The notes: generated by a model not told the origin, from the letters alone. Numbered from the whole stretch's first letter, positions 1 to 61,626 are shown. The stretch is DNA of 63,654 nucleotides, filler included, from Collodictyon triciliatum (GCA_043381765.1; 6 parts of 6 records of this genome joined end to end with filler, not necessarily neighbours in it), one strand, 5' to 3'. A program made the numbers and translations.

Positions 1-7
1 TAATAAA

Positions 8-2320
8 ATGCAAGCGATTGAGTTCATAGTTACAAATCAAATCCCATATGCCTATGCCCATTACTATTTAGAAAATGGTAAAAAGCATACTATCATTGAG
101 AAGAACGACTGCCCATTAAATGAGTTAGACGCGTATAAGGAAAAGAGTAAAGTTATGTATAATACATACTGCTCATATCTTAAACGAAGAGTGACTCGAG
201 AGGAAAAGAAAGATAAGTGTTTTAGAGTTGCGTCACTTTATCTAAAGTATGTTCCCGACCTTGTTTGTATTGATTGTGATTCTGAAGAGGTAAATGACCC
301 TAATCAACTTGGGCAAATTTTAAATGTCCCAACAATCAACAATTCGATGTGCTGGACACGAGGTAACAACAAGGGCTTTCATATCTATGTAAAAGTCAAA
401 GGTTTTCAAAAGTCAATGGAGGGCACCAAGGTGTTTGGTGAAGGAATGCCAGATGTTGATATCATAAAGTATACAAAGAACATCTGGGAGCGTGAAGATA
501 AAGTGTTTAAAAACAAAATATCTGACTTTGATTTTTCCAGCATTTCACATTTGCTAAAGTCAAAGAAACGCACTATTGAACAAACGTTACCTGAAAATGT
601 TGAGTCTACTATTTGTCCTATTATTGAAAGTAAAGTAAAAGCCAACTGTCCTTTGCAAGACAAGATTTTCACCGAGGTGTTAATTGATAAGATGTTGGAC
701 CAAGGATATTTTAAAATAATTCCACCAGACTATGACAATTGGGTCAAGTATGGGTTTATTTTAGTCAATGCAAATGTTGATAATTTGCAAGAGACCTGGT
801 TAAAAGTTTGTGAACAGGTTCCAGATTCTCAAGAGTCAAGTACCAAAGAACGACTTGAAAAATTAAGCCAGTTACAAAATACACCAAAGTCTAAACACCC
901 AGTTACATTTAGAACGCTACTTACAATGCTAAAACAACTATTGTCGGAAAAAGTTTATGAAGCAATGTATAAATTGGTTTTTTATTCTTATAAGAACAAG
1001 TGTCAGGAACAATGGTACGATGTAACCAAAGAAAAATTTGAAAAAGATCATTTTGAATTCAAGGGTAGAGTTATGGAAATCAATTCTGACTTTACTCTTT
1101 ATCAATGGGTGCAGTTGGATGTTCAAATGGCTAATGCGCACTTACATAAAAATTTTGATGGACACCTAGTATATTTCTTAGACCTTTGGCGTCGAGATGC
1201 AAAGAAAAGAGTGGTCAAAAATATAATTATGCGCCCTGACTTGCCACGAGAGTTAGACCCAATTAAATATCCCAACACTTACAATACTTTCCAAGGGTAT
1301 TTAATTGAAAAGCATGGGGACATTCGTGTCCAATTAACTGATGAAGACCTCAGTCAGTGGAAAAAAACGTCATACATTTGTTGGGTGATTTGGCACCAGC
1401 TATGCGACGAGACTCCCGAATTATACGAAGAGGTTATGCAAACATTTGCGAATTTACTTTTTGCTCCCCAGGACATAGGTAGGTACCATTCGTGTCTTAC
1501 ATTTTACAGCGACACGGAGGGTGTGGGTAAGTCTCTCATTACAACAAACTTGTTTGTTAATACGATCATTGGACCCAATTATGCAATCAAGACGAGCAAG
1601 ATGGACGATATCTTTGGTAAGTACACAGAGCTAGCTGAAAACAAAATTTTAGTTGTGATTGAGGAAGGTAAAAAGTCTGATGCGATTCCATTTGCTGATG
1701 TTGCGAAGGACTGGTTGACTTCTGAAACAGCCATTGTACATAAGAAATGCCAAAGCAAGTATATTACAAACAATTGCTGCCATCTGATTTGCAACACCAA
1801 CAATAAGAGTGTTTGGAAGGTTTCAGAAACAAACCGACGATACTTGATTTCCCACTGCAAGGAAGAATTGTTGCGTAAGGACTACCTCGATGATGTCCTG
1901 GCTGAAATCAAGAATTTAGATGAGGTTGTTAAATTTTGTAGGGTGCTTTATACAATCTTTGACAAGAACTGGCAGTGTGAGAAATACATTCAAAATCAAT
2001 ACAAGCAAACTGAAATTTACAAAGAGCAGTTACAGGACCAAATCAGCCAGATTGATATGTTCTATAAGCAGTACTTGATTGACGATACTTTAATTAAAAG
2101 AGACTGTTTGGATAAAGATATCAAACCTTTGGACCTATATACAAAATTCAGGTGCATGATATCAAGCTGCGGAATCCAGGACAAAGACATTTGGACGAAC
2201 CGACGATTTGGAGAGCAATTGAAAAAGACCCCCGGGGTTGAACAGAATGGCTACAAGAATTACAAAATTTCTTGGAAAAAGATTGAAGAGTACCTTCATG
2301 AAAAACATTTACTTGAATAA
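8..2320 (+). CDS. Primase-helicase: PrimPol (AEP) + PriCT-2 + D5-like superfamily 3 helicase + C-terminal winged-helix-like region
   Basis: AEP motifs LVCIDCD, TRGNNKGFHIY and DVDII; PriCT-2-like YDNWVKYGFIL; SF3 Walker A EGVGKS, Walker B VVIEE, motif C ICNTN and arginine finger NRRY. Uninterrupted 770-aa ORF. Confidence 0.88.
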   Translation: MQAIEFIVTNQIPYAYAHYYLENGKKHTIIEKNDCPLNELDAYKEKSKVMYNTYCSYLKRRVTREEKKDKCFRVASLYLKYVPDLVCIDCDSEEVNDPNQLGQILNVPTINNSMCWTRGNNKGFHIYVKVKGFQKSMEGTKVFGEGMPDVDIIKYTKNIWEREDKVFKNKISDFDFSSISHLLKSKKRTIEQTLPENVESTICPIIESKVKANCPLQDKIFTEVLIDKMLDQGYFKIIPPDYDNWVKYGFILVNANVDNLQETWLKVCEQVPDSQESSTKERLEKLSQLQNTPKSKHPVTFRTLLTMLKQLLSEKVYEAMYKLVFYSYKNKCQEQWYDVTKEKFEKDHFEFKGRVMEINSDFTLYQWVQLDVQMANAHLHKNFDGHLVYFLDLWRRDAKKRVVKNIIMRPDLPRELDPIKYPNTYNTFQGYLIEKHGDIRVQLTDEDLSQWKKTSYICWVIWHQLCDETPELYEEVMQTFANLLFAPQDIGRYHSCLTFYSDTEGVGKSLITTNLFVNTIIGPNYAIKTSKMDDIFGKYTELAENKILVVIEEGKKSDAIPFADVAKDWLTSETAIVHKKCQSKYITNNCCHLICNTNNKSVWKVSETNRRYLISHCKEELLRKDYLDDVLAEIKNLDEVVKFCRVLYTIFDKNWQCEKYIQNQYKQTEIYKEQLQDQISQIDMFYKQYLIDDTLIKRDCLDKDIKPLDLYTKFRCMISSCGIQDKDIWTNRRFGEQLKKTPGVEQNGYKNYKISWKKIEEYLHEKHLLE

Positions 2321-2346
2321 ATTTGTGCAACTTGCACCAATTTATT
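2316..2346 (+). terminator. Hairpin overlapping the primase-helicase stop codon; candidate 3'-end/polyadenylation signal
   Basis: AATAAATTTGTGCAA-C-TTGCACCAATTTATT: 15-nt arms with 14 of 15 pairs complementary. Confidence 0.5.
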
Positions 2347-2413
2347 TATTAATATTTCTAATGCGTAAAATCATTAGTAATAGTTCAGTAGTGTAATATT
2401 TTGGATACATCGT

Positions 2414-2421
2414 AAAATTGA
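2414..2421 (+). promoter_or_regulatory. AAAATTGA, identical to the Mimiviridae early promoter motif, about 75 nt upstream of the ATG at 2495
   Basis: Exact octamer in the intergenic region. It is AT-rich, so a chance match is possible. Confidence 0.3.
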
Positions 2422-2494
2422 ATTTCTATATGTATGTGTGACTAGTTTTTTAAGTGCGTTTTTATCTAAAAATTCTTTTCTTTGTAATATTAGG

Positions 2495-3043
2495 ATGGCG
2501 CCAAAGATATCTGAAGAAGTTAAAAAAATGTTACCTGAAAACTGGGAAAAGAATTTTGAGCCGATTGCCCCCGAAGATATCCAAGTGGGGGATTACATTG
2601 CGTACGTCGATGTACCAAGAGCGTACACCAGAAAATTTCAAGGAGAAAATAAAGGTGGTTTCAAAAAAGGCGGGTTCATTACGTTTGTGCCCGACCTAGA
2701 ACAATCCGAGCTGAGAGGAAACAAAGATGAGGTGTTTGGGTTTAGACAATATAGTTTCAGATGGAGCGTGAATGCAAGTAACGTTCTACTCTTTTTGAAA
2801 ACAAAAAAGAACGTGGAGGCAATGATGGAAGCAGCCAAGGATAAATCCAAAAAGTCAAACGCAAAGAAACGTGTTGAAAAGGTTGAACTTGAGAATAGAA
2901 TTTTATCCGAAGAATTGAAGGAAGCCCTGGAAATTACCAAACGTGCAAGAACACGCAAGACTCCCCCTGTGGACGAGGAGGCTCCAGGCCCTGCACCCAA
3001 GAGGACCCGCAAGCGGAGTGCTACACCTTTACCACTTGAATAA
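2495..3043 (+). CDS. Hypothetical element protein (~182 aa): small beta-rich N-terminal domain, coiled coil and basic NLS-like tail
   Basis: First ATG is at 2495 (the ORF track starts at an upstream GTG). Motifs GDYIAY, FKKGGFI and RWSVN; tail PAPKRTRKRS. Confidence 0.7.
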   Translation: MAPKISEEVKKMLPENWEKNFEPIAPEDIQVGDYIAYVDVPRAYTRKFQGENKGGFKKGGFITFVPDLEQSELRGNKDEVFGFRQYSFRWSVNASNVLLFLKTKKNVEAMMEAAKDKSKKSNAKKRVEKVELENRILSEELKEALEITKRARTRKTPPVDEEAPGPAPKRTRKRSATPLPLE

Positions 3044-3044
3044 A

Positions 3045-4346
3045 CTAATCATCCAGTAAAGCAAATGTGTCTTTTCTAAGATTTCTAAAACGTGTTGGAG
3101 GTTGCTCGGGGCTCTCGGGTTCTTTTTCAACTGGCGGTATTTTTTTTGGTCTGCCACGAGGGCGTTTTTCTTTGATTGGCTCGTTGGGGTCTTTTGGTTT
3201 AGGTGGGCGCCCTCGTTTACCCGGTGGGCCTTTGGGACCGATCGGGTTTTTGCGCGGTGCTCCAACCCCGCGTTTTTCCTTATACAATTCTTTAAAGGAA
3301 TACAGTTCATGTTTGGGTTCATGCCTGCCCTCGGTTGTATCGCTATCGACTTTTAAAAGGTCGTGTCGTTGAAACTTCTTTCCAGACAAGTCCCAGTCTT
3401 TGTTATATTTTAGACCGTACATGATAACTGCAAATTCACTTTCTGGTTCATATATTTTTGATATTTCATAAAGGTCAAACGACCACTTGGGCATATACCC
3501 TTTGTCTTCTTTAATTGTTTTTTTAATCGTCGCGCCGAAAACAACTTTATCCATTGCGACGCGCACTTTGTCACCAATTTGCAAACGACTTTGAGGTCCT
3601 TTGCTAATATTTTTATTTGCGTTATAGTAACCTACATTTGCAGCTATCTTATCTTTATACTTGTCAAGGACTGCAAGTTCAGGGATTACTTTAGTTGTTG
3701 CGTTTGGTGTAAGATTAAATGCTTCCACAAATTTGTCCAGGTCGGGTATCGGGTCTTTACCTGTTTTCTGTTTATACGAGTAAAGTGCTTTTTTGATTCG
3801 TCCATTGTAACGTTCCACGTAGGCGTTGGTTGTTGGATTTGCGACGCTCGAAAAAACCTGTCGTATGCCATTTGCTTTCATCCATTTTTCAACTTCTGCG
3901 GCTTTAAAATTTTGAGCATTGTCGGATTGAATTGTATGTAAAAATGGGTATTCTTCTTTTATGTCATCAAGACAACTAACTACATTTTCCGCAGTGGCGC
4001 TTGGCAATGCAAACGACCAGGCCTTTCTGCTGTACACATCCACAAAATTCAACAAATCGGTTATATTTGGCGACCCTAATTTTTTAATATCCATAGCGTC
4101 CATTTGCAGGTAGCCAGGCTTTGAGCGTTGCAGGGTGGGTGTTGTTTTGGCAGTCCCAATTTTTTGGTGTGTTTGCCAGTCGGGTTGGACTTGGATGAAT
4201 TTATCGACGTAACTGCGTGGGATACCGAATTCACGGACTGCGCGGAAAAGACTGTCACGGGAATTAGTGTGTTGGGGTGCATTGTAATATACATCATTTA
4301 ATTTTGCTTGCCATTCGTCTCGCGGTAGAATTTTGGACTTCTCCAT
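3045..4346 (-). CDS. Maverick/Polinton-type retroviral-like (rve, DDE) integrase with C-terminal AT-hooks
   Basis: Maverick-like N-terminus LNDVYYN..FIQVQPDWQTHQK; DDE triad in LQMD, IQSDN and YVERYN; VDVYSRKAW; post-catalytic IGDKVRV..KGYMPKWSFDLYEI; tail KRGRPPK and RPRGRPKK. Confidence 0.9.
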   Translation of the reverse strand: MEKSKILPRDEWQAKLNDVYYNAPQHTNSRDSLFRAVREFGIPRSYVDKFIQVQPDWQTHQKIGTAKTTPTLQRSKPGYLQMDAMDIKKLGSPNITDLLNFVDVYSRKAWSFALPSATAENVVSCLDDIKEEYPFLHTIQSDNAQNFKAAEVEKWMKANGIRQVFSSVANPTTNAYVERYNGRIKKALYSYKQKTGKDPIPDLDKFVEAFNLTPNATTKVIPELAVLDKYKDKIAANVGYYNANKNISKGPQSRLQIGDKVRVAMDKVVFGATIKKTIKEDKGYMPKWSFDLYEISKIYEPESEFAVIMYGLKYNKDWDLSGKKFQRHDLLKVDSDTTEGRHEPKHELYSFKELYKEKRGVGAPRKNPIGPKGPPGKRGRPPKPKDPNEPIKEKRPRGRPKKIPPVEKEPESPEQPPTRFRNLRKDTFALLDD

Positions 4347-4500
4347 TATTTTCGGCCATATTTTTTTTTGCTAATTGATTTTGCATATTTTTGTGAATGA
4401 ACTTACTGCTGGAAAATTCCGGGTCGTACATGTTTTTCAACTTGTAGTCCTTCTTTTTCTTTTCGACTTTAGATTTCTTGTATTGCTTATCCTTGACCAT
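4294..4500 (-). CDS. Small lysine-rich ORF (68 aa) overlapping the integrase start
   Basis: ATG start, preceded by the same TCTTGTT(N6)ATG motif as the ORF at 8566; contains an A9 run. Confidence 0.5.
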   Translation of the reverse strand: MVKDKQYKKSKVEKKKKDYKLKNMYDPEFSSSKFIHKNMQNQLAKKNMAENNGEVQNSTARRMASKIK

Positions 4501-4536
4501 AGTTTGAACAAGAAATAAAATTTGTTTGTAATTGTA
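4501..4536. promoter_or_regulatory. 36-bp divergent intergenic region; putative bidirectional promoter
   Basis: Separates head-to-head ATGs at 4500(-) and 4537(+). Contains TCTTGTT on the minus strand and TTTGTAAT on the plus strand; the latter also precedes the ATG at 2495. Confidence 0.45.
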
Positions 4537-7500
4537 ATGAAACGTGGAAAGATAGTGACAGACGCTAGAGTTGAGGCAATGAAAAAAGCAGCAAAGGAAA
4601 AAAGAATGAAAAAAACAACATCACAAATAGTTCCCGAACAATCACCCCCCAAAGTGGCACCCGACCTAGCAAGAAAACGTATGCCGGACCTTTCTTTATT
4701 GTCCCCCCCTACTCCTGAGGAGACTATAACGTTTTCTAGCCCAGAAAAAACTACACCAGACAAACCTTCTGTTAGCAGAAAACTTAATTTAACTCCTAGC
4801 CCACTTAGTGAAAAGATAAAAGCAGTCACCCCAGAAAAAGTTCAAGAATTAAAAGAAGAAAGAGGAAAGTTAGCCTCAAAACTAAAAATATTGTCCGCAA
4901 CTGATCTGTTTAATTATCACTTTTATGATGAGTTGAAAGACGATTTTGCCAGAGAAGGTTTGCCCATAACTACAGGAGCAGAGTTGATTCAAAAATTAAG
5001 TACGATGCAGCAGTTAAATTTTGGGCCGGGTCGACAACAATTAAATGCAAAAGTAAGAGATAGTATTAAAGATTTTGCAAATAAACTTGTGCATCCCGCG
5101 GACAATAGAAAGTTTGTACCAACGTGGACTGCTCCAGCAATTAATACATTTTTTAAAGAACTTACAGTTGAACCATATGGTGTTGGGGGGGGTCATTATA
5201 TACCACTAACAAATGATATATATAGAAAGCATGAAATAGCAGGTCGGAGTCGGAAGGCATCACCAGCACCACTTGTAAACAGGCCCGCGTTCACACAAGA
5301 ACAACTAGACGAACGGGATGCCCGAAAAAAAGAACGTAGCGCCAGCTATGCAGAAATGAAGGCTAAACGACATGAGGAATTTAAGAAAGATAGGGAAGAA
5401 TTTCGACAGGACTGGAAAGAGGCAATGGAGGAATATGAAAGCACCCTTCCCCCAGGAATGTTGCCTCAATTACAAGATTTAGCACAAATGAGAGAGTATG
5501 TCGAGGATACCGTCGTCCCCACCCGTACTTCAAAACAACGTGAAAATCAAATGATGAAACTCGCGATAAAAGAACAGGAAATGCTGGAAAAACTCAATCA
5601 GGGGATACCCAAAACACCCAAAGCAGAAAAACCAGGGAAAATTTTACCCCCATATGATCAACCTGCAATGGCGTCACCCCCAACATTAGCAAATACACCC
5701 AAACGAGAAAAACCAGGGAAAGTTTTACCCTCAATGCTTCAACCTGCAATGGCGTCACCCGCTCCAAAAAAACCTGTACCTGCAATTGATGTATCCGCTG
5801 CGGCAGACCAATTTAGACTGGCAATAGAGGCAGAAACAAAAGCAAAAGCAAAAGCTGCGGCAGAAGCAAAAGCAAAAGCAGACGCAGAAGCAAGAAGAAA
5901 AGCTGCGCAAGAATTATTAAGACTGGCAGTAGAAGGAGCACAAACAAAAGCAGAGACAGAACAAGTTAGACTGATATTAGAGGCAGAAGCTAAAGCAAAA
6001 GCTGCGGCAGAAGCAAAAGCTGCGGCAGAAGCAAAAGCTGCGGCAGACGCAGAAGCAAGAAGAAAAGCTGCGGAAGACGCTAAAGCGAAAGAAATGCAAG
6101 AAGCATATAACCGGGAAATAGCAAAGGCAGAAAAAGCAAAGGCAAAAAGAAAACAAAAAGCTGCGGCAGAAGCTAAAGCTGCGGCAGAAGCTAAAGCTGC
6201 GGCAGAAGCTAAAGCTGAGGCAGAAGCAAAAGCTGCGGCAGAAGCTAAAATGAAAGCTGAGGAGGACCAATATCAAAGGGTCTTGGCAAAACAACGGGCT
6301 GAACGGGCAGCCGAGTTAGAAAAGGTTGAAGCTTCTGAATTTATGAAAGGTGGACAAAAACAAGATGTAGTTATGACTCCTGAAGTAGCAAGAGGTAATA
6401 AAGTAAACATATCAAGATATATTTCAGAATACAGTAAACTGAAGAATCCCACTATTACACAGATGATTAACTACATGTCACTGTTTGTTGATAACAAAAA
6501 AAGTATTTGGAACGATAGACCAAAGACAAAATTTACATGGAACAAGGCAATTGGATATTTTGAAAAGTTTTTTTATGAGATGAGATACTTGGAACCAGGC
6601 ACAGAAGAAATGTTTGAAAAGCTTACCGTGTTTAGTCCAGAAGGTCTAGCTTTATTAGGACAAGCTATGAAGTTAACAGAATCAAAAAGTACTAGACCCG
6701 TATTTGTTAATTTAATTAAAATAATGAGCACGGACTCAGATGAGGAAATGAGAGAAAATGCGCAAGCTACCTTGATGAAACTTTATTCGTATGTAATCTT
6801 CAATTATTGGAAAACAGAAAAATATGAATTACCGAAAGATACATTTAGTGAATCAAGTTTAAGGAATGTAGGAAGCATGATAGATAAAATACAAAATACA
6901 CGGGATCTAGTACAATATCTATACTCAACAGTTAATCAGAGTAAAGAAAAAAGACTTTGGCGTGAGTGGATACCGTATGCATCATCAAATATACTAGAAA
7001 ATACTGATATATACATTCAACGGATAAAAGGTCAGGCAGGGGATGAGTTTAATAAATACTTTTTAACAAATGAAAGAGGCAATCTTTTAAAAATGTGTAT
7101 AGACCTGGATGATTGGAGATATCCCAATGTAACTAGTAAAAATAGTTTGGTTGCAAAATACCGACAAGCTATTGAAAAAAAAACTAACATTGACATAACA
7201 GATTTAATTAAAGATTGGAAAAGAAAACAAAGGGACCAGATGTATAGTAAAGACACGATTAATTTTGTTAGAAGTTTATACACCATAGATGTGTTGGAGA
7301 ATCCAGAAAAGTATGAAGATGTAAAACGGTTACCGTCTGACGAAGCTAGTCTTTATACTGGAGTTTCAAAATCACCGGGGACATTTGCAAGTGCTACATC
7401 ATCATACATTCAGAGGGAAATGGCCAATATGTTGAATATAAAATTAAACCTTACAACAGAGGAAGAAAAGAGAGGTGAACAAATATTGAATGCAATCTAC

Positions 7501-8544
7501 AAAGAGTTTGAACGGGGATATAATGAAAGTTATAAAATACCTGAAAGAACTGTTGCCCAAATTTTAACAACACCTCAAAGAGCAAAATTTGCGTCAACAT
7601 ATCAAGAGTCATCAAGCGCAGGTTACAATATAACTTTAGTAGACCCACAGTCAGCAAAAGAAACTGAGGTTGATAGTGAACCTGAAGATGAAGATGAGCA
7701 GGATACAAAAACTCCGGTACGAAAAGTAAAGGGAGTTGTTGGTGTATCACCAAGCAGCCCAACTCCTGGTAACACTCCTGTTGTTGCAACAAGTAAGTCC
7801 CCATTTAAAAGACCTGACATCAAAACAAGTTTTAAAATAAATGAACGTCTTGCAGATTTATTTCAAAGATTCTATGAGAATTATGATCCTTTACTTCCCC
7901 TTGAACCGCTTGTAGAGTTTACTACTATCGAAAAATATCACAACAACATGAAAAGAAAAACTTTATCTGATTATTCTGTTTACCCGTTAATTGCTATGTG
8001 GAATGAAACAATATATGAATTACGACAATCATTGCGTCGCACCTATAACATTGATATATCGGTTTTTAAGATTCCAGAAGACAGAATAAATTTGTTAATT
8101 CAAAATCCTGAATGGATAAGAGGGTTATATAGAATACTAGTAAGACTTACAAGCATAAACATAGATGAATTGGAATTTAGATTTCTAGCAGATGAATATA
8201 CCCATGTCATAAAAAAAGAATTCCCGGAAGTGTTTGAATCACCACAGCGGATTGAATCCGCAATTAATCAATGGAATGAAATGGAGTCTAGGCAGGATAT
8301 ATATGGGGATACAGGAGTTGAAGAGGTTCCAAGCGATGAGGATGAAAGTGAAAAAGAAGAAGATGATATGCCAGCTTTTGATCCAGGAGTGATAGATAGA
8401 ATTGCTGATGAAGACATTGATTGGGATGAGGAAGAGGAAGAAGAAGAAGAGGAAGAAGAAGAGGAGCCTAAGGAATATAAACAATACATTATTAAAATTT
8501 GGTTAGATGATGCACATACAAGGTTTATAGGAATAACTGCATAA
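4537..8544 (+). CDS. Large hypothetical element protein (~1335 aa) with SP/TP-rich regions, Ala-Glu-Lys helical repeats and an acidic tail
   Basis: Uninterrupted 4-kb ORF; duplicated TPKxEKPGKxLPxxxQPAMASP; AEAKAA repeats; poly-E C-terminus; no catalytic motif recognised. Confidence 0.75.
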   Translation: MKRGKIVTDARVEAMKKAAKEKRMKKTTSQIVPEQSPPKVAPDLARKRMPDLSLLSPPTPEETITFSSPEKTTPDKPSVSRKLNLTPSPLSEKIKAVTPEKVQELKEERGKLASKLKILSATDLFNYHFYDELKDDFAREGLPITTGAELIQKLSTMQQLNFGPGRQQLNAKVRDSIKDFANKLVHPADNRKFVPTWTAPAINTFFKELTVEPYGVGGGHYIPLTNDIYRKHEIAGRSRKASPAPLVNRPAFTQEQLDERDARKKERSASYAEMKAKRHEEFKKDREEFRQDWKEAMEEYESTLPPGMLPQLQDLAQMREYVEDTVVPTRTSKQRENQMMKLAIKEQEMLEKLNQGIPKTPKAEKPGKILPPYDQPAMASPPTLANTPKREKPGKVLPSMLQPAMASPAPKKPVPAIDVSAAADQFRLAIEAETKAKAKAAAEAKAKADAEARRKAAQELLRLAVEGAQTKAETEQVRLILEAEAKAKAAAEAKAAAEAKAAADAEARRKAAEDAKAKEMQEAYNREIAKAEKAKAKRKQKAAAEAKAAAEAKAAAEAKAEAEAKAAAEAKMKAEEDQYQRVLAKQRAERAAELEKVEASEFMKGGQKQDVVMTPEVARGNKVNISRYISEYSKLKNPTITQMINYMSLFVDNKKSIWNDRPKTKFTWNKAIGYFEKFFYEMRYLEPGTEEMFEKLTVFSPEGLALLGQAMKLTESKSTRPVFVNLIKIMSTDSDEEMRENAQATLMKLYSYVIFNYWKTEKYELPKDTFSESSLRNVGSMIDKIQNTRDLVQYLYSTVNQSKEKRLWREWIPYASSNILENTDIYIQRIKGQAGDEFNKYFLTNERGNLLKMCIDLDDWRYPNVTSKNSLVAKYRQAIEKKTNIDITDLIKDWKRKQRDQMYSKDTINFVRSLYTIDVLENPEKYEDVKRLPSDEASLYTGVSKSPGTFASATSSYIQREMANMLNIKLNLTTEEEKRGEQILNAIYKEFERGYNESYKIPERTVAQILTTPQRAKFASTYQESSSAGYNITLVDPQSAKETEVDSEPEDEDEQDTKTPVRKVKGVVGVSPSSPTPGNTPVVATSKSPFKRPDIKTSFKINERLADLFQRFYENYDPLLPLEPLVEFTTIEKYHNNMKRKTLSDYSVYPLIAMWNETIYELRQSLRRTYNIDISVFKIPEDRINLLIQNPEWIRGLYRILVRLTSINIDELEFRFLADEYTHVIKKEFPEVFESPQRIESAINQWNEMESRQDIYGDTGVEEVPSDEDESEKEEDDMPAFDPGVIDRIADEDIDWDEEEEEEEEEEEEEPKEYKQYIIKIWLDDAHTRFIGITA
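5614..5760 (+). repeat. Two in-frame copies of a coding repeat with 81-bp period
   Basis: ACACCCAAA..GAAAAACCAGGGAAA..TTTTACCC..CAACCTGCAATGGCGTCACCC at 5614 and 5695. Confidence 0.85.
5813..6260 (+). repeat. Coding minisatellite (18-bp GCAGAAGC[A/T]AAAGCTGCG units) within a larger duplicated block
   Basis: Encodes AEAKAA repeats; the block RLxxEAExKAK..ADAEARRKAA occurs twice. Confidence 0.85.
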
Positions 8545-8565
8545 AAATAATATCTTGTTTATAAT

Positions 8566-9486
8566 ATGACTACACCTTTAAAAGATTTGCGATTTAGAAG
8601 ATCAGCAACAGATGAGGGGGAAACAGAGATGGGGGGCTCGGGTGGTTTTGCGCCAATGAGTGGATCACGACCTCAAAGTCAATTCTATGAAGCAAGTCAA
8701 TCCACTCGTCAACGTGCTAGTGCGCAAAGTGCGCAAAGTGCAAGCGGTGGTGGTGGTGGTGGGGACGACGATGATGATGACCCGTGGCGACGACGTGGTG
8801 GTGGTGGGCGTGGGCGTGGTGAGGCTGCACTTGAATTAGATTTAAATGAGTTTAAACTGGCAATAGCTCAAGGGTTTCGTATGGCTCAGAGTGATGACTT
8901 TGAAGCTGAATTGATTAGACAAAATCCAGAAATAAATGACCCGCCGCGAAGTCTATCTGATTTTATTGAACGTATGTATGACCCAGATGTGAGCGTATCA
9001 CAAAAGAGGCAGGACCTTGTTAAACAATTTGATGATTTGGGTGCGCAGTATATTCAATACCCTAATGAAAGCAATAGGGATATTGTTCAGCGACTAGACT
9101 TTATAAAAAAAATAAAATTGCAGAACGAAGCATATGCAGCTTTAAAAAGCGGTGAGCCTATCAAATTGGAAAAAGGATTTATGCAAACATCTGACTTTTC
9201 CCAGGAAAAGATTTTATCAACTGCCGTGAATGGTAGCCCCACTTCAAAAATTATACGATTCACAAATGGTATTTCCGAAGTCAAAATAGTTCCTGATGGT
9301 AATGGGCAATACTTTGGTGTGCAATCTGGCAAACGATTTGGTCCTGGGAAATTCCCTGACATCGAACGCTGGGCACAACGCGGTGGGTTTGAGGCAAACG
9401 AGAAACGTGAATTAAAAAATATTATGGACGCTATCAAGGACCCCGAAAAGATGAAGGCGGTCGTATTCAGAGCACGCAAACTTTAA
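8566..9486 (+). CDS. Hypothetical element protein (306 aa) with a Gly/Arg/Asp-rich N-terminus
   Basis: Intronless ORF 21 bp after the previous stop; GGGGGGDDDDDD and RRRGGGGRGRG; preceded by TCTTGTT(N6)ATG. Confidence 0.72.
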   Translation: MTTPLKDLRFRRSATDEGETEMGGSGGFAPMSGSRPQSQFYEASQSTRQRASAQSAQSASGGGGGGDDDDDDPWRRRGGGGRGRGEAALELDLNEFKLAIAQGFRMAQSDDFEAELIRQNPEINDPPRSLSDFIERMYDPDVSVSQKRQDLVKQFDDLGAQYIQYPNESNRDIVQRLDFIKKIKLQNEAYAALKSGEPIKLEKGFMQTSDFSQEKILSTAVNGSPTSKIIRFTNGISEVKIVPDGNGQYFGVQSGKRFGPGKFPDIERWAQRGGFEANEKRELKNIMDAIKDPEKMKAVVFRARKL

Positions 9487-9824
9487 AGGGTCGCTGGGTC
9501 GCTGGGTTTAACACCGGCTTGATTCCTCTATATGATTGGGCTGTGTGCAGAACTGCATAAACGTAAAGCCGGCTCATAGTAATTTATTATACTACCCAGA
9601 TAATCTATATAATCTATATAATCTATATATTATATAATAGTAAATAGGATAAATATCTATATAATAATCATGGGGGTTGATTCTATGTTAGTGTGTCAGT
9701 GTTTGCAGTCTCGCCTGTCATCGGCACACATCTTTCAGTGTCAGGGGTTATACTCGCCAAAACATACCAAATATAGTATCAGCGAACGGTTTCCAGGTGA
9801 ATTTTCGAGATTGCAGGGTTAAAG

Positions 9825-9866
9825 TGATATCTATATATACTTAATATTAAGTATATATAGATATCA
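9825..9866. repeat. 42-bp perfect palindrome
   Basis: TGATATCTATATATACTTAAT|ATTAAGTATATATAGATATCA; all 21 pairs complementary. Confidence 0.95.
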
Positions 9867-9941
9867 TTGGGTTTTTTTATTGGGTTTTTTTATTGGGTTT
9901 TTTTATTGGGTTTTTTTATTGGGTTTTTTTATTGGGTTTTT
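9866..9941 (+). repeat. Tandem 13-bp repeat (ATTGGGTTTTTTT) x5 plus one partial unit
   Basis: Units start at 9866, 9879, 9892, 9905 and 9918, with a shortened unit at 9931. Confidence 0.95.
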
Positions 9942-10259
9942 ATTTGACCAAAAGATAGAAAAAGACAGATAATTCTACTTTTAAGTAATATTAATTTATA
10001 AAATTCATAGAAATTTACTATTTAAGTGTATTCAAGAGCTAATTGAAAAAGCACGCCAATGCGGGTGTTGGTTGTTGATGTTTTGGCTTTTTCTTGACAA
10101 CAAAGAGGATTACACACCAGAAATCGAGGGATATGAAATGAGATTAAAATACTCACGAAATATACATCCTACCTTCCAGTTTGCGTTACTGCATTCGTCT
10201 AGTAATTTTTCTTCCAAAAATATGATGTTATATTTTATTTTCCAGAAATAATTAGTTTG

Positions 10260-11721
10260 ATGGAATTCTCAGTCTATTTCGGTATGACTACATGGATGAT
10301 TCCACACCAGCACCAGGTTTTCATGCGGTCTCATTTCAACACGCCAGAGGATGAACCGATAGACACCGACTGGAAGGCTGTCAAAGAGAAGCTCATCTCC
10401 TTGCTCAACGAGAAATCCAGCGAATTCAAGAAAAAAGGCAACATAGAGAGAAGGACACTCGAACGAGAAAGAGACTTTCTCATGTCAACCTCTACAAAAC
10501 CCTCATCGTGGAGCGAAGGGCATAAAAAGAAAATCGTATCGGTCGAAGATAAACTGATTGCACAGCTATCGGAGGATATCGCGGCTGAAAGGCAAAAATG
10601 GGAATCACGACACATCAGGTACTACGAGCAAATCGACCGATGGTTCTTCGGATTCGACAAAGAAAAAGAAATGACGCTCTACCCTCCACTGCCAGAGTCA
10701 GACGAGAATGAACCACTGCCACCTGAAGAGATTGGCAAAACCAACATCCAAAACTCCTACGCCGATGTGTGGAAGAAACGAGACTTTGACCGTGCCGCTC
10801 TCGACCTGGTGACAAACAACTGCTCTGTGGCGAACGAAAGGGAGGCAGAATCCATGGTCAAAGACATCGATGACAGCGAATTGTGGAGCGCAATCAAGTC
10901 CATGCTGAAGCGCAAAGCACCAGGCCCTGACCGCCTACCTAGTGAAGCGTACGCCACCTTCTTCCAAGTCATCAAGACATCCCTCCTGGGACTCCTAAAC
11001 AGCTTAATTGCAGATGCAGACAATATCCCGGATGGCTTTACAGAAGCAATGGTGCGTCTAATCCCAAAGAAAGAGGATGCAACTGAACTCATAGACTGGC
11101 GCCTGATATTGCTGCTCAACATCGACTACAAGATATTTGCCACAATCCTAAGAAACCGAATCACTGATATCGCCGACAGGCTCATATCAAAGGACCAAAT
11201 AGGATTCATGCGCGGCAGGAACATCGACACAAACATAGGCTCGTTAACAAGGAATACATGGAATATGAAGTCTACAAAGACCCACGCATCATGATATTCT
11301 ACGACCTTGAAAAAGCATATGACTATGTGAACCATGAAGCCCTAGAAATAGTCTTAAAAAAGAGGATTCTGCTCAAAGTTCACCACACTTATCAAGAAGC
11401 TACACGACAACGCCGCAACTAGGGTTCTGACTGCACACGGCCCTACTGACATAATCCAGAGACAAAGCGGCGTCTACCAAGGCTGCCCTCTGGCGCCGCT
11501 TCTCTTTAACTTTGTTGCCGACTGCCTTGCAATCCACTTCAGAAACAACAACAACAAAATCCGCAACCAGTTCCTCCTGCAATATGCCGACGATACAGCC
11601 TTCATCCTTCGCTCTCCTGAAGGCACTATCCTGGCAAATAAGTGCATGCAAGAATACACACTTGTAGTCGGAGGTAAAATCAACTTCAACAAAACAGACG
11701 GTATCCTATTCGGCCTACAGG
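10260..11721 (+). mobile_element. Degenerate non-LTR retrotransposon (L1/Tx1-like ORF2 reverse transcriptase); 5'-truncated, frameshifted, cut by the contig end
   Basis: KAPGPD, LIPKK, DWRLILLLNIDYKI and QIGFMRGR; then in shifted frames DLEKAYD, GVYQGCPLAPLLF, LQYADD and KINFNKT. Frameshifts near 11240-11290 and ~11360. No endonuclease domain seen. Confidence 0.9.
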
Positions 11722-11821
11722 NNNNNNNNNNNNNNNNNNNNNNNNNNNNNNNNNNNNNNNNNNNNTTAATTAATTAANNNNNNNNNNNNNNNNNNNNNNN
11801 NNNNNNNNNNNNNNNNNNNNN
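11722..11821. other. Artificial contig spacer N44-TTAATTAATTAA-N44
   Basis: Six-frame-stop linker repeated identically five times in the window. Confidence 0.97.
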
Positions 11822-12183
11822 AAAAAAAAAAAAAAAAAAAAAAAAAACAAAAAACAAAAAACAAAAAAAAACAAAAAACAAAAAACAAAAAACAAAAAAC
11901 AAAAAACAAAAAACAAAAAACAAAAAACAAAAAACAAAAAACAAATAAAAAAACAAAAAACAAAAAGAGAGAAAAAGGCAACTTATGCGATCAATATCTG
12001 AGATATAATCAATTAAGTCGAATGATGGGGGGTGGGGACTGGCCCATCCAAACTCCTTGACCAAACGTGTACAGGAAAAAGTGAAACTTCTGATCTTTCT
12101 TTAGTCTCACTGCCTCACGCGCCGTAACGCCAAAGATATTCTGCCCCTGAACAACCGAGCACAGCTTTCGTTTCACGAGAATC

Positions 12184-22420
<10,237 letters not shown>

Positions 22421-23459: not shown

Positions 23460-23559
23460 NNNNNNNNNNNNNNNNNNNNNNNNNNNNNNNNNNNNNNNNN
23501 NNNTTAATTAATTAANNNNNNNNNNNNNNNNNNNNNNNNNNNNNNNNNNNNNNNNNNNN
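23460..23559. other. Artificial contig spacer
   Basis: N-TTAATTAATTAA-N. Confidence 0.97.
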
Positions 23560-23699
23560 AAAAAAAAAACAAAAAAAAAAAAAAAAAAAACAAAAAACAA
23601 AAAAAAAAAAAACAAAAAAAGAAAAAAACAAAAAAACAAAAAAACAAAAAACAAAAAAACAAAACAAAAGAGCAAACCTAACCCAAACGAACCGCTCAG

Positions 23700-26600
23700 G
23701 TGCATGCCAAGCTGGGCCACCTGCTGAAGGCGATGATCCCGGAGCCGTTCCACGTGCACGTGGTGGAGGCCGGGGAGACGAGCAAGACGCGGGGCCACAA
23801 GGGGCGGGTGGAGGACTGGATGCTGGGGCTGCGGTGCGACCGGGGGAGCGTGGTGGTTGCGGTCGGGGGCGGGGTGGTGGGGGACCTTGCGGGGTTTGTG
23901 GCCGCGACGTACCTGCGCGGGGTGCGGGTGGTGCAGGTGCCGACGACGCTGCTGGCGATGGTGGACTCGAGCATCGGGGGCAAGACGGGGGTGAATGCGG
24001 CGGGGGGCAAGAACCTGATCGGGGCCTTCCACCAGCCCACGCGCATCTACCTGGACCCGACGGTGCTGCGGACGCTGCCGCGGCGGCAGGTGTGCAACGG
24101 GCTTGCGGAGGTGGCCAAGTGCGGGGCGATCTGGGAGGAGGAGCTGTTTGCGTTCCTGGAGCGGGAGGCGGACGCGCTGCTGGCCGGCGAGGCGGACGCG
24201 CTGCTCCACGTCATCAGCCGCAGCGCCGCCATCAAGGCGCACGTGGTGACGCAGGACGAGAAGGAGACGCTGGGGCTGCGCGCGCTGCTCAACTTCGGGC
24301 ACACGGTGGGGCACGCGGCGGAGGCGCTGCTGCACCCGGGCGTGCTGCACGGCGAGTGCGTCAGCATGGGCATGGTGGCCGAGGCCGAGATTGCCCGCGC
24401 CCTGGGGCACCTGCCGCCCGCCGCCGTGGGCCGCCTCGTGCGCCTGCTGCGCGCCCTGGCCCTGCCCGTCCGCATCCCCGCCGCCCTGCCGCTCCACGCC
24501 CTGATGGCCCGCATGGCCCTGGACAAGAAGAACCAGCGCGGCGCCGTCCGCATGGTCCTGCTCGCCGCCGTCGGCCGCCCCCTCGTCCCGGACGCCGTCC
24601 CGGTCCCGCTCCCCGACATCCGCCTCGCCCTCAGCCGCGCCTGCAGCGTCGTCCCCTCCCCGTCCCCGTCCCCGTCCCCATCGCAGCCCGTCCGCCTGCG
24701 CGTCCCCGGCTCAAAGTCCGTCTCCAACCGCGCCCTCCTGCTCGCCGCCCTCGCCGCCGGCAACTGCAGACTCCGCGGCCTGCTGCACTCGGACGACACC
24801 AGCGTCATGATGGACGCGCTGCAGCGCCTCGGGTGCGCAAGCTTCCGGTGGGAGGAGCACGACACGCTGCTGCACGTGGCCGGGGGCGCAGGCCGCATCC
24901 ACGCCCCGCACCCGCCCGCCCCGCTCTACATGGGCAACGCCGGCACGGCCATGCGCTTCCTCACCACCGCCGCCACGCTCGTGCGCGACGCCGACGTCGT
25001 CCTCACCGGGTCCCGCCGCATGAGGGAGCGCCCCATCCGCGACCTCGTCGACTCGCTCAACGCCGTCGGCGCCCGCGTCCACCATCTCGACACCCCCGGC
25101 TGCCCGCCCCTCCGCGTCGAGGCCACCGGCTTCCACGGCGGGCCCATGCTGCTCTCCGCCGCAGTCTCCAGCCAGTTTGTCTCCTCCGTCCTGCTCAGCG
25201 CCCCTTACGCCCTCAACCCCGTCGTCCTCACCCTCCGCGAGAAGACCCCCGTCTCCCAGCCCTACATCGACATGACCCTCCAGCTCATGGCCCGCTTCGG
25301 CGTCTCCGTCCGCGTCCAACAGCCCCCGCCAGACTCCGACCACGGCGCCTCCTACCACGTCCCCCAAACTCCCTACACAAGCCCTGCCCTCTTCGACGTC
25401 GAGGCCGACGCCTCCTCCGCCACCTATCCTTTGGCCATCGCCGCAATCACAGGCTCTGCTGTCTGCGTCGACGCCGTCGGCTCCTCCAGTGTCCAGGGTG
25501 ACGCCCGCTTCCACCTCTTCCTCCAGGCCATGGGCTGCACCGTCGCACAGGACGAAGCCTCCACCTCCGTCCAAGGCCCTGCCCTCGGCTGCCTCCAGGC
25601 CGTTCAGGCTGACTTTGCTGACATGACCGACGCCTTCATGACTGCTGCCGTCCTCGCAGCCGTCGCCAAAGGAACTACCCGCATCACAGGCATCGCAAAC
25701 CAGCGTGTCAAGGAGTGCAACCGCATCGCCGCAATGGTCACCGAGCTCTCAAAGTGCGGTGCCACTATTGCCGAACTCCCAGACGGCCTCGTCATCGAAG
25801 GCAAACACCCTTCTCTGCTGCATGGCGCATCCATCCACTGTTACGATGACCACAGAATCGCAATGAGCTTCGCTGTCCTTGGTTGCATCGTCCCAGGAAT
25901 CATCATCACTGACAAGTTTTGTGTCGAAAAGACTTACCCAGAATTCTGGGATGACCTCCAAAGACACTTTCGCCTGCAAGTAATTCCAGGATGTGATGTC
26001 TCCAATCAGCCTTCGTCTTCAACTGATTCTTCTTCATCAACATCAACATCAACATCAACACCTTCATCTTCGACTGATTCTTCTTCTTCTTCAACTGCCT
26101 CTGTGCTTTCATCCCTAAGCGAATCTGATTCGCCTTCCATCATCCTCGTTGGAATGAGAGGTGCCGGGAAAACGACGCTCGGGAAAACGGCCGCGCGCAT
26201 TCTCAAATGGAGATTCATCGACATCGATGAATACATGACCGAATTCATCTTTAAGGTTCCAATCACAGAATACGTCGCACAAAACGGCTGGCCTGCATTC
26301 CGTGCTCAAGAAGAAGAAACCGTTCGTCTCATCTTAAATACTTACCCAGCAAATACAATCATATCCATGGGTGGCGGTGTCGTCGAATCCGAGTCCCTTC
26401 GCACCCTCTTGCAGAATAGAAATGTTTGCCCAATCGTAGTCCAAATTAAAAGAAACATCGACGAAATCATAAAGTACCTGGAAGCAGATCAATCTAGACC
26501 AAAACACGCAGAACACCCAAAGGATACATGGGAAAGAAGAAAGACATGGTATTCAAAAGTTTGCAACTTTGACTTCCCCATCATCTCCAATGACACAGAC

Positions 26601-29283
26601 CCTGCAAAATCTGGATTTGAGTTTTCAAATTTCATTAACCGCATTATTGCAAACAAACTTTCATCCATTCGAAAATCATCATCATCATCCTTATCTTCTT
26701 CCTCTCCATTTTGCGTCATCCCACCTGTTTCGTCCAGCGACTCTTATTTCTTGTCCCTCACCTACCCAGACTTGACGGAATACACAAAAGATTTAGCCTT
26801 GGTAACAACTGGGGCTGACGCCGTAGAACTAAGGATAGACTTGTTAAAGTCTCAAAATCAGGATTTCATCGAAGGTCAGCTCGCAATCCTCAGGAGATAC
26901 ACCAATCTCCCAGTCATCTACACAGTTCGTTCAGAATCTCAGGGCGGTGCTTTCGAAGGAGAAGAAGCAGATTATATGAAGCTCGTTGAAATTGGTATTC
27001 GTCTGGGATGCGAATACATCGATATGGAAACATCCTGGAGCATCTCCGCTCAATCTGGTATCCTCCAATCAAAAAGCGCCTCTCGTATCATCGCATCATA
27101 TCACGAGCGTAGTGAAGATTGGGCAGATTCAGATGTAATTGCGGCATTCGAAAATTGCCTATGTGAAGGAAAATCAGACATCGCGAAAGTCGTCTTCCAT
27201 GCTACAAGTGCAGAACAAGGGGCTCGTGTTCATGCAATTGTTTCTAGCCTCCCAAATCCTCGAAATGTTCCTTTCATCGCCATATGCACAGGAGAAAAAG
27301 CAAATTTTTCAAGGATTCTAAACTCTTTCTTGACTCCTGTCACTCACCCCGCACTTCCAACACCTGCTGCTCCTGGCCAGTTGTCCATCAAGGAGATTGC
27401 CGTTACTAAATCGATGCTAAAGCTCGCAAAGCACAAAAAATTCCATCTCTTTGGAGGTTCCTCTATTGCGCACTCTCCCTCCCCAACATTGCATAATTCA
27501 GCTTTCGAAAGGTATATGGTGCCTTTCAACTACTCCATTTTGCCAGCAGAAAACGCAGCCGACTATGTGAGCACACTGCGCGAAGCCGACTTTGGCGGGG
27601 CATCTGTCACAATTCCCCATAAGGAATCAATCGGAGTACATCTCGATGTAATTTCTTACCATGCCAATCAAATTGGAGCAGTGAACACAATCAAGGTATG
27701 GTTCTGGATATATTTTAATTTTTTTAATTTTATGATTATACTATCTTTGATTTGTTTATTTTATCTTGGTCTATCTTGATTTGGTTTATCTTGGTCTATC
27801 TTGGTTTGATTTGGTTTGTTTCGTTTAGTTCATGAAGACAATGCAATATATAAGAGAAAGTTCTGAAGCCGTGTGTTGAAGTTCGGTATCCCTTCCAGGG
27901 ATTTTTTTTTTCCATTTTATTCAAACATCCATGCTTACGATGTAATTTAAAATAGGCAATTCATGTGGCAGGCTTTAGTGGAAAGAGTGGTGAGAACCGA
28001 CTCCTCTATGGAGACAATACTGATTGGTTGGCTCTAAGAGACATAGTAAATCTTCAATAGAATAATTTTTTCTTCCACTCGCTTCTCCTTCTTGTATCTA
28101 GATTTATCTATATTCATGTTAAAAAAAATAAAAGAATATTATTTGGATCTATTATCATCCAATCCATGAATTCTCTAATCTAATACATATTAATATCCGA
28201 TTTAACATTTCCATCTTTGAAGATTTGCCAGAAACTGGATGTCAGCCCTCAAAACTGTGCATCGGCCGGGTTTAAAGCCCTCGTAATAGGCGCCGGAGGA
28301 ACCGCCCGTGCAGCATGCTATACACTCACATATTTAGGTTTCGATGTAACAATTTACAACAGAACTGTCGAGAAAGCCACTGCGCTTGCCGATAAGTTTG
28401 GCTGTAAGGTAAGTTCTTCTTCATATCACTCTCTTACATGATGAATCGAACAATTGGTTGGGAATCTCACTCTTTTTATAAAATTTTGCGATTTACAACA
28501 ATGAGGTTTAATTTGCGTCCTTTTTTTTTTTTTTTTTTATTACACACTGCCTGTTTTGCTATCTCTTTATTTCGTTTATGACCGCCCAACCATCCGTCTA
28601 TGCAACAAATCCTTCTTTTTCCTTTTCTTTTATTCATTTTTTTTTGGATTAATACATTTAGGTGGCAGCATCTTTGGAGGATGTTGGCGTGACTCCTTTC
28701 CATGTTGTAGTTGGTACAGTCCCCGCAACAGCATCATTTGCACTTCCAAGCGCAGTCTATGAAAAGTACGAATTTTTTGCTTTTTTAAAAAAAAACCTCT
28801 CTTTATTTTCATCTTGATGACGCACTTTAAACGAATCATCAATGGGTGCTTCGCTGGGTGCATAATCATTTCCTCTTAGCCAGTTGTCGACTGCATAATT
28901 ATTACTCTTCCCTTGTCATTTAATTTTCAAATATTTTTTCGTTTATCATGTGAACTAATTTCTGATTTAATTATTTGATGATATAATTGCGCAAAATGCA
29001 TCAGAAAACGAAGAGTCTTTGGGTATTTCTGTTTCTGCACACACACACTTACAACACCCTTTGCTGTTTTAACAGATCAAAGCCACTTGTTATTGACTTT
29101 GCCTACAAACCCCGCGAAACGGCACTCCTGCTTGGTGCTCGGCAAAACGGATGCGACACTGTGGAGGGAATCGAGCTTCTCATCCAACAAGGCCTTTACC
29201 AATCCGAACTATGGACAAAGCTCAGTGCGCCACGCGACCTTGTTGCATCAGCCGTCTACGAATTTGCATCCAAAAGCTCATAG
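23700..29283 (+). CDS. ARO1: Pentafunctional AROM protein (DHQ synthase, EPSP synthase, shikimate kinase, type I DHQ dehydratase, shikimate dehydrogenase); 5' exon(s) missing
   Basis: DHQS: GGGVVGDLAGF, PTTLLAMVDSSIGGKT, LNFGHTVGHA. EPSPS: PGSKSVSNR, GNAGTAMRF, SSQFVS, RVKECNRI, DDHRIAMSF. Kinase: GMRGAGKT. DHQase: AVELRID, PAAPGQ. SDH: HSPSP, SVTIPHK, GAVNT, GDNTDW, GAGGTARA. Exons approx. 23700-27695, 27956-28045, 28223-28409, 28662-28765, 29076-29283. Confidence 0.96.
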
Positions 29284-35192: not shown

Positions 35193-35292
35193 NNNNNNNN
35201 NNNNNNNNNNNNNNNNNNNNNNNNNNNNNNNNNNNNTTAATTAATTAANNNNNNNNNNNNNNNNNNNNNNNNNNNNNNNNNNNNNNNNNNNN
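35193..35292. other. Artificial contig spacer
   Basis: N-TTAATTAATTAA-N. Confidence 0.97.
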
Positions 35293-49767: not shown

Positions 49768-49867
49768 NNNNNNNNNNNNNNNNNNNNNNNNNNNNNNNNN
49801 NNNNNNNNNNNTTAATTAATTAANNNNNNNNNNNNNNNNNNNNNNNNNNNNNNNNNNNNNNNNNNNN
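49768..49867. other. Artificial contig spacer
   Basis: N-TTAATTAATTAA-N. Confidence 0.97.
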
Positions 49868-61526: not shown

Positions 61527-61626
61527 NNNNNNNNNNNNNNNNNNNNNNNNNNNNNNNNNNNNNNNNNNNNTTAATTAATTAANNNNNNNNNNNNNNNNNN
61601 NNNNNNNNNNNNNNNNNNNNNNNNNN
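61527..61626. other. Artificial contig spacer
   Basis: N-TTAATTAATTAA-N. Confidence 0.97.

Follow-up and report, generated by a model that had tools for sequence, protein, structure and literature searches.

A primase-helicase and rve integrase element in a Collodictyon triciliatum sequence, probably the right half of an integrated polinton-like virus

In published reports, polinton-like viruses (PLVs) which combine an rve-family integrase with a primase-helicase (Pri-Hel), or with a fusion of an archaeo-eukaryotic primase and a superfamily 3 helicase (AEP-S3H), are described as elements of 14-40 kb with inverted repeats that span several hundred bp and with duplications of 5-6 bp (PMC12220804, PMC10120064, PMC12747079, PMC7805220). 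Endogenous PLVs of protists often encode a protein-primed DNA polymerase B (pPolB) or a primase-helicase, accompanied by either a tyrosine recombinase or an integrase of the rve family (PMC10120064); in cryptophyte PLVs, AEP-S3H fusions are frequent and rve integrases accompany 6-bp duplications, and most PLVs have long proteins of >1000 aa with fibre-like features (PMC12220804). The PLVs of a freshwater cryptomonad are reported with a median length of 20.3 kb, 35% GC, inverted repeats of 488 bp (median) and a core of replicase, integrase, the major (MCP) and the minor capsid protein, and A32 (PMC12747079). Their integration in protist genomes is described as common (PMC12220804, PMC10120064, PMC12747079), the endogenous copies as often fragmentary (PMC10120064, PMC7805220) and the boundary between Polintons and PLVs as blurred by gene content (PMC7805220). 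Here, an element of this type was analysed in a stretch of DNA from Collodictyon triciliatum (GCA_043381765.1; 63,654 nucleotides or 63.6 kb, filler included, from six parts of its genome records), hereafter the window, over which all positions are counted; the element portion is 1-9945.

We read positions 1-9945 as the right half of a PLV integrated in a eukaryotic genome and cut by the edge of the window, a reading to which a probability of about 0.72 is given. Its genes pair a primase-helicase with an rve integrase, they are intact, their order is shared with relatives bearing virion genes, and the element runs without interruption into host-type DNA. The pairing itself, which the earlier note on this sequence had put forward as its headline, is not new because it is described for PLVs in three reports (PMC12220804, PMC10120064, PMC12747079). 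The features of the locus are as follows.

2..2320, + strand: primase-helicase gene (AEP primase and SF3/D5-like helicase), 772 aa, 5' open; Pfam DUF5906
272..460, + strand: AEP catalytic motifs DxD (LVCIDCD), sxH (GFHIYV) and hD (DVDII), invariant in 8/8 aligned homologues
1505..1840, + strand: SF3 helicase core with Walker A GVGKS, Walker B VVIEE, motif C TNN and RR; DUF5906 at aa 500-611, invariant columns
2495..3043, + strand: orf182, small family-conserved protein of 182 aa with homologues in L001, L002 and L003
3045..4346, - strand: rve-family DDE integrase, 433 aa; Pfam rve, D83/D142/E178
4347..4536, no strand: divergent intergenic region of 190 nt between the integrase (-) and orf1335 (+), from the ORF spacing
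4537..8544, + strand: orf1335, large lineage-specific protein of 1335 aa; one homologue, P0051
8566..9486, + strand: orf306, 306 aa, with a Gly/Asp/Arg-rich N-terminal part
9487..9945, no strand: non-coding right end, candidate terminal repeat (repeats, palindrome, DNA fold)
10206..11777, + strand: degraded reverse transcriptase resembling that of a long interspersed nuclear element (LINE), in the flank outside the element; RVT_1 in two frames

The open reading frame (ORF) at 2..2320 matched DUF5906 (Pfam, E 3.6e-10, above the curated cut-off), which we take to be the helicase domain of SF3/D5 type, and gave a weak match to PriCT_2 (E 0.069). Together, the AEP primase and the DUF5906/SF3 helicase with invariant catalytic residues make up a replication gene of the kind carried by PLVs. 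In an alignment of eight primase-helicases sharing 38-100% identity, D97/D99, H133 and D159 were invariant, as were Walker A G513-S517, Walker B E560/E561, T605-N607 and R618/R619, in the numbering of P0001, a 778-aa protein reported as 100% identical to that of the window; these conserved residues are presumably the AEP and SF3 motifs. The PDB primase 6k9c/6k9e aligned to the helicase part of the protein (E 7.3e-4). Database searches in 5.8 billion proteins returned 14 matches at E <= 0.001 among 4161 candidates, eight of which are full-length relatives of 37-100% identity, all of them unnamed proteins. Scans of IMG/VR with the primase-helicase alone and with the alignment gave 5 and 197 pattern matches, none of them a confirmed relative. 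One 56-aa member of the primase-helicase cluster, P0021, reads like a fragment of an unrelated protein and was ignored.

The N-terminus of P0001 is MESEDCNKMQAIE, and the frame of the window, already open at base 2, begins NKMQAIE; approximately six codons are missing, the gene being cut near codon 7 by the edge of the window. Where the element stops on the left is consequently arbitrary, set by the data and not by the element itself, and capsid genes are probably missing only because the element is cut there.

The integrase, of one of the two kinds carried by PLVs (rve or tyrosine recombinase), matched Pfam rve above the curated cut-off (E 3.8e-12). Its residues D83, D142 and E178 were invariant in 3/3 integrases, and the segment containing D142 and E178 aligned to the retroviral integrase core 3kkr of PDB (E 7.7e-4), so that the AEP, SF3 and DDE motifs of both enzymes are intact, as the earlier note had stated. 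The basic C-terminal tail of the protein resembles AT hooks (GRP motifs); in the L001 homologue a weak AT_hook match was below the Pfam cut-off (E 0.015). The neighbouring orf182, conserved in all four elements (window, L001, L002 and L003), has a globular N-terminal region (~105 aa) and then a Lys/Arg-rich tail, in which the L001 and L002 homologues carry RGRPKK. No match to orf182 was obtained in Pfam, PHROG or PDB, the latter including a profile search. Judging from its composition and place, orf182 may have a DNA-binding role near the integrase.

The portion 1-9945 contains five large ORFs, which are intronless and intact and do not overlap one another. They cover 95.9% of 1-9486 and are separated by spacers of 174, 1, 190 and 21 nt. 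The remaining ORFs of at least 80 aa in 1-9945 all overlap the main five in another frame or on the other strand, and in the end region 9487-9945 the longest ORF has 50 aa. Hence the genes are packed, intronless and intact as first described, with a count of five instead of six. The GC content averages ~0.38 over ten 1-kb windows of the element, the Pfam scan found no family for orf182, orf1335 or orf306, and neither a tRNA scan nor an Rfam scan gave any match in the element or its flank.

A scan of metagenome contigs yielded three related loci from 237 pattern matches: L001 (12,876 nt), L002 and L003 (a 16,409-nt record, of which 15,265 nt were examined), L001 and L003 being the only ones extending upstream of the primase-helicase. 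Compared with the window, identities were 37-40% for the primase-helicase, 28-37% for the orf182 homologue and 30-50% for the integrase. The three-gene module is in the order and orientation of the window in both L001 and L002. L003 is rearranged: its integrase (655 aa) is on the + strand, its orf182 homologue, placed in L001 and L002 as in the window, lies on the other side of the integrase and on the opposite strand, and the locus ends 94 nt past that homologue. In L002, the first 38 residues of a 5'-open primase-helicase frame (3-122) resemble residues 145-181 of the window's primase-helicase; this extra stretch precedes the normal N-terminus and could have arisen by local duplication or as an artefact of assembly.

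Upstream of the primase-helicase, L001 and L003 share the gene order o119/o114, a 1342/1188-aa protein, an 804/737-aa protein, o254/o267, o115/o112 and a 240-aa ATPase, the last immediately before the primase-helicase in L001 and separated from it by a 148-aa ORF in L003. The ATPase is Pox_A32 in both (Pfam, E 7.4e-9 and 1.5e-9, above the curated cut-off), so an A32 packaging ATPase precedes the primase-helicase in 2/2 relatives which extend there. The outermost ORF of L003 (207 aa, cut by the locus edge) is a capsid gene. An exhaustive HMMER search gave 13 relatives at E <= 0.001, the full-length ones of 520-541 aa; the best of them, P0052, has 64% identity (E 3.6e-68). The predicted fold of P0052 (10-row alignment; predicted template modelling score, pTM, 0.73; mean predicted local distance difference test, pLDDT, 67.8) was matched by Foldseek in PDB to the double jelly-roll capsids of Singapore grouper iridovirus (SGIV), Sputnik, PBCV-1 and mavirus, with E-values of 3.5e-14 to 2e-11 and a probability of 1.00 (mavirus MCP, E 1.1e-11), and in BFVD to capsid proteins of giant viruses, virophages, adintoviruses and adomaviruses. 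Capsid proteins of virophages, nucleocytoplasmic large DNA viruses (NCLDV) and PLVs matched this model about equally well. On the strength of the predicted fold, the outermost L003 ORF is taken to encode a double jelly-roll capsid protein.

The 804/737-aa protein was considered as a capsid protein and rejected, having Ser/Thr/Gly/Asn-rich repeats and no Pfam family; by its composition it looks more like a fibre. The penton candidates o254 and o267 are 35% identical to each other. The coiled-coil proteins of 1342 and 1188 aa, otherwise dissimilar, share the C-terminal motif IRR.G.NY.V..GG.K..FGS (55% identity over 29 residues, E 2e-6; L001 4309-4395, L003 4426-4512). Genes lie close to the examined end of the L003 record, and the locus suggests a nearly complete small genome.

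Given the A32 ATPase of both these relatives and the capsid gene of one of them, L003, the module of the window belongs to a family of polinton-like viruses in which the virion genes stand just upstream of the primase-helicase. For the copy in the window, the virion half would then lie to the left of the window edge. Of the two possibilities that the earlier note had offered, the right arm of a divergent PLV or virophage is the one favoured by the A32 ATPase of the relatives (2/2) and the capsid gene of L003. That note had also named a standard Maverick gene set as what would turn the element into an ordinary Polinton; in the relatives, MCP and ATPase were found, and Pfam detected neither pPolB nor a protease family above cut-off among the 18 ORFs of L001 and L003 scanned. 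Likewise, Pfam found no DNA_pol_B in the window, where five ORFs of the element and one of the LINE were scanned, and no adenain-like cysteine protease above cut-off in the window ORFs or these 18 ORFs; a weak Peptidase_C15 match inside the L003 integrase protein (E 0.0028) was below cut-off. Since the MCP and ATPase of the relatives come without detected pPolB or protease, the element is considered a PLV and not a Polinton in the strict sense.

Within the window, no pPolB, capsid or ATPase gene was seen by Pfam of the element ORFs or by tblastn with the L001-L003 ORFs, in agreement with what had been noted before. Searched with all ORFs of L001-L003, the whole window gave matches limited to the three shared genes (23-4223) plus two weak ones (E 0.005) at 5056-5172, both given by a short antisense ORF of L001/L002, and the L003 MCP fragment had no match anywhere in the 63.6 kb.

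To the right of the shared module, orf1335 and orf306 are specific to the lineage of the window, with no counterpart found beyond one unnamed protein, P0051. The N-terminal half of orf1335 is made of low-complexity Ala/Lys/Glu repeats (tandem repeats at 5610-6249), and its C-terminal ~730 aa are conserved and predicted to be mostly helical. P0051 (1148 aa), the only match among 6399 candidates in the length range searched, has 53% identity over residues 600-1300; the alignment of both proteins (55% identity) has long conserved blocks reaching their shared C-terminal end, and orf1335 is therefore a real, constrained gene whose Ala/Lys/Glu repeat region is expanded in the window copy. The Logan contig of P0051 measures 9411 nt, as does that of P0004, a primase-helicase 67% identical to that of the window. 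From this equal size both proteins probably share one contig, and the linkage would therefore be conserved in a second lineage.

Neither gene could be assigned by similarity. No significant similarity was found between orf1335 and the large ORFs of L001/L003 (best E 0.028), or between orf306 and o119 or o1342 of L001. A PHROG 'tape measure' match of orf1335 (E 1.2e-6, residues 204-634) was treated as compositional because it covers the low-complexity repeat region. An AlphaFold2 model of its C-terminal 736 aa from a 2-row alignment was unusable (mean pLDDT 35.5, pTM 0.24), an Atlas search with residues 600-1270 gave no usable match, and a PDB sequence search with the P0051 alignment gave zero or chance-level matches. 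For orf306, Pfam, PHROG, PDB and Atlas provided no assignment, the best Atlas score (0.84) being below the lead threshold. By analogy, orf1335 might be guessed to be one of the long (>1000 aa) fibre-like PLV proteins; as with orf182, any roles of orf1335 and orf306 would be putative.

These data also bear on whether the element ever had a capsid module. The second possibility of the earlier note was a capsid-less, self-replicating and integrating element of transpoviron-like kind. Spelled out as a PLV derivative of ~10 kb, with primase-helicase, orf182, integrase, orf1335 and orf306 between terminal repeats, which would replicate and integrate by itself and rely on capsid-bearing relatives or on a giant virus for packaging or mobilisation, it would account for the lack of a structural gene in the 9.9 kb seen, for the presence of orf1335 and orf306 as extra genes absent from the capsid-bearing relatives, for the 9411-nt contigs of P0004 and P0051, near the span estimated in that relative, and for the lack of any contig >13.1 kb on record for the close lineage. 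On the other hand, the primase-helicase is cut by the window edge and not by a terminus, the A32 ATPase is present in both relatives extending upstream and a capsid gene in one of them, and Logan contigs are generally short, which makes their size weak evidence, with the co-location of P0004 and P0051 itself deduced from equal size. The window edge being enough to explain the absence, and the relatives carrying a virion module, this possibility is considered unlikely. Just as doubtful is its extension to the whole lineage of 67-100% identity as compact, capsid-lost elements of freshwater protists which borrow the virions of PLVs or giant viruses; if true, such a lineage would be a satellite of a satellite-like virus.

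Several observations nonetheless weigh against the right half of an integrated PLV as the preferred reading. The left arm of this copy is outside the window, and with one end only inside it, neither an inverted repeat nor a target-site duplication can be compared. The capsid-bearing relatives are distant (37-40% primase-helicase identity) and without orf1335 and orf306, their own large ORF sits in the left arm, and L003 stops 94 nt past its orf182 homologue where the window continues for 5 kb, so the architectures are not identical. For the closer relatives (67-100% primase-helicase identity), no contig exceeds 13.1 kb (P0016, 10,337 nt; P0020, 13,111 nt), and the 9411-nt contig of P0004/P0051 is near the estimated span from primase-helicase to right end, ~9.4 kb, which would also fit a short element. 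Finally, the penton candidates o254 and o267 had no sequence match in Pfam, PHROG or PDB.

The non-coding right end has the structure that had been described from inspection. A 9-nt repeat occupies 9600-9638. A perfect 40-nt palindrome, the stem of which was seen in the DNA fold, covers 9826-9865 and is followed by 5.8 copies of the 13-nt unit ATTGGGTTTTTTT at 9866-9941. Folded as single-stranded DNA, 9487-9945 had a z-score of -2.96, with 1/100 shuffles folding as well. No inverted copy of 9487-9945 occurs elsewhere in the window, the repeats of which are microsatellites and N-flanked low-complexity stretches. From these sequence features, 9487-9945 is a candidate terminal repeat which would place the border between element and host only approximately. 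Long 'inverted repeats' of the window were considered as element termini and rejected as low-complexity artefacts of paired N runs and microsatellites.

Beyond the right end, the LINE fragment reported earlier on the same contig was recovered as RVT_1 matches in different frames at 10260-11294 (Pfam, E 1.9e-7) and 11358-11720 (E 5.7e-11), followed by an A-rich tail, (AAAAACA)n, at 11822-11966. Further right is a pentafunctional AROM gene with six shikimate-pathway Pfam domains. With a LINE reverse transcriptase beside the element and an AROM gene further on, the flank is eukaryotic. The AROM-type protein is encoded by a single 1365-aa open frame (23682-27779), inside which GC shifts from 0.75 at 24-25 kb to 0.42-0.44 at 26-28 kb. 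Paired 44-N runs, 12 bases apart, occur at 11722-11821, 23460-23559, 35193-35292, 49768-49867 and 61527-61626, where they adjoin A- or T-rich microsatellites, and one more pair, of 51 and 45 N with 9 bases between them, is at 18629-18733.

The occurrence of the stretch in public sequencing runs was estimated by 31-mer sampling; of 24 runs listed, 20 contain the stretch or part of it, and these belong to 10 studies. In fifteen metagenome runs from freshwater, aquatic or lake samples, 64-84% of the sampled 31-mers are present, which converts roughly to ~98.6-99.4% identity. The contigs of one metatranscriptome contain 40% of the sampled words, and the element is perhaps transcribed. In runs X19-X24 the fraction was at most 0.07, to which no evidential weight is attached. 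The element or its host is thus common to many fresh waters, be it as free virus or as integrated copies. The earlier description as a recent or active copy is plausible in view of the intact ORFs and the near-identical copies in many runs.

The presence of the stretch, almost whole, in these 15 runs would also fit abundant free particles, and hence a free virus or contaminant misjoined to host DNA in a chimeric scaffold; moreover, the junction of element and LINE lies in low-complexity T-rich repeats, at which misjoins may arise. Against this, bases 1 to 11721 contain no N and the element runs straight into the LINE fragment, an integrated copy should have an intact rve integrase and a structured end, as seen here, and such PLVs are commonly integrated in protist genomes (PMC12220804, PMC10120064, PMC12747079). 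A misjoin is thus the least likely of the explanations weighed here. A dead remnant, whose left arm was lost by deletion or rearrangement and whose right arm persists, is quite improbable as well. A degraded LINE adjoins the element, and the fragmentary state frequent among endogenous PLVs in two reports (PMC10120064, PMC7805220) would agree with such a loss; however, the five ORFs are intact with 96% coding and conserved catalytic residues, any truncation point would be outside a primase-helicase frame that is open at the first base, and 64-84% of 31-mers in 15 runs is unlike a decaying single-copy relic.

Short motifs precede a part of the genes. An A/T-rich sequence and then TCT(1-3)G-N7-10-ATG stands before 9/22 annotated starts compared with 38/1136 ATGs overall, an enrichment which is biased because the motif was derived after the data had been seen. 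The nine starts, putative structural genes of L001 and L003 among them, are those of orf182 and orf306 in the window, of o119, the fibre-like gene, o254 and o115 in L001, and of the fibre-like gene, o267 and o112 in L003. The sites compared in the window were 2470-2494, 4515-4536 and 8545-8565, and the start of orf1335 has the variant TTTGTTTG-N8-ATG. In this virus family it may serve as the promoter of late or structural genes, that is, the TCT(1-3)G motif. A second upstream string, GTGCGTTT (GTTACGTTT in L003), then a T-rich sequence and TAAA, is located ~40 nt ahead of orf182 homologues and of the L003 integrase (window ~2452-2475; upstream of L001 11795, L002 2600 and L003 12658), and GGCTTAAA(A/G) precedes the primase-helicase genes of L001 and L003 and also L003 o174. 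The strings of GTGCGTTT type and GGCTTAAA may be promoters of another gene class.

Taken together, an integrated PLV cut by the window edge would function as follows. The rve integrase would insert a linear double-stranded genome via its terminal repeats, presumably terminal inverted repeats with a 5-6 bp duplication of the target. The AEP primase-SF3 helicase would start and unwind replication, elongation being left to a polymerase of the host or of a helper virus, and the element may depend on a giant virus. Expected in the left arm would be an A32 packaging ATPase and the major capsid protein, together with a probable penton and possibly a fibre, proteins which would build particles upon activity of the element.

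If this reading is true, the element is one more endogenous PLV, a kind common in protist genomes and lakes, and greater importance would follow only if the capsid-less alternative were true. Its value is in a small, unnamed and apparently cosmopolitan family with a possibly active population, and in two unexplained large genes, orf1335 and orf306, which make up about half of the visible coding capacity and are without an assignable fold or family. The family, previously unnamed, may already figure in the supplementary tables of PMC12220804, PMC12747079 and PMC10120064.

As to known systems, transpovirons are linear plasmid-like elements of ~7 kb found in giant viruses, capsid-less and without integrase. 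The part seen here is like them in having no capsid gene and a helicase-based replication gene, and unlike them in its AEP primase domain and its capsid-bearing relatives; its intact rve integrase and its contiguity with eukaryotic chromosomal DNA place it outside transpovirons so defined. Mavericks/Polintons and mavirus have an rve-type integrase as in the window, and double jelly-roll capsids related to those of the relatives; in contrast to Mavericks/Polintons, no protein-primed PolB and no cysteine protease were found in the window or in L001/L003, where the replicase is a primase-helicase. L001 and L003 share with the window the primase-helicase, the orf182 homologue, the integrase, the same catalytic residues and a similar upstream motif, and differ in having the A32 ATPase and a possible fibre left of the primase-helicase, with a partial MCP in L003, and in being without orf1335 and orf306. 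Endogenous protist PLVs differ from the part in the window, a probable right arm, by their capsid module, inverted repeats and target-site duplication. They resemble it in the AEP-SF3 fusion replacing pPolB, the rve integrase, the packed intronless genes, the low GC (35% in the PLVs of one host, compared with ~0.38 over the element here), a non-coding end of several hundred bp (459 nt in the window), proteins of >1000 aa and integration beside retrotransposons.

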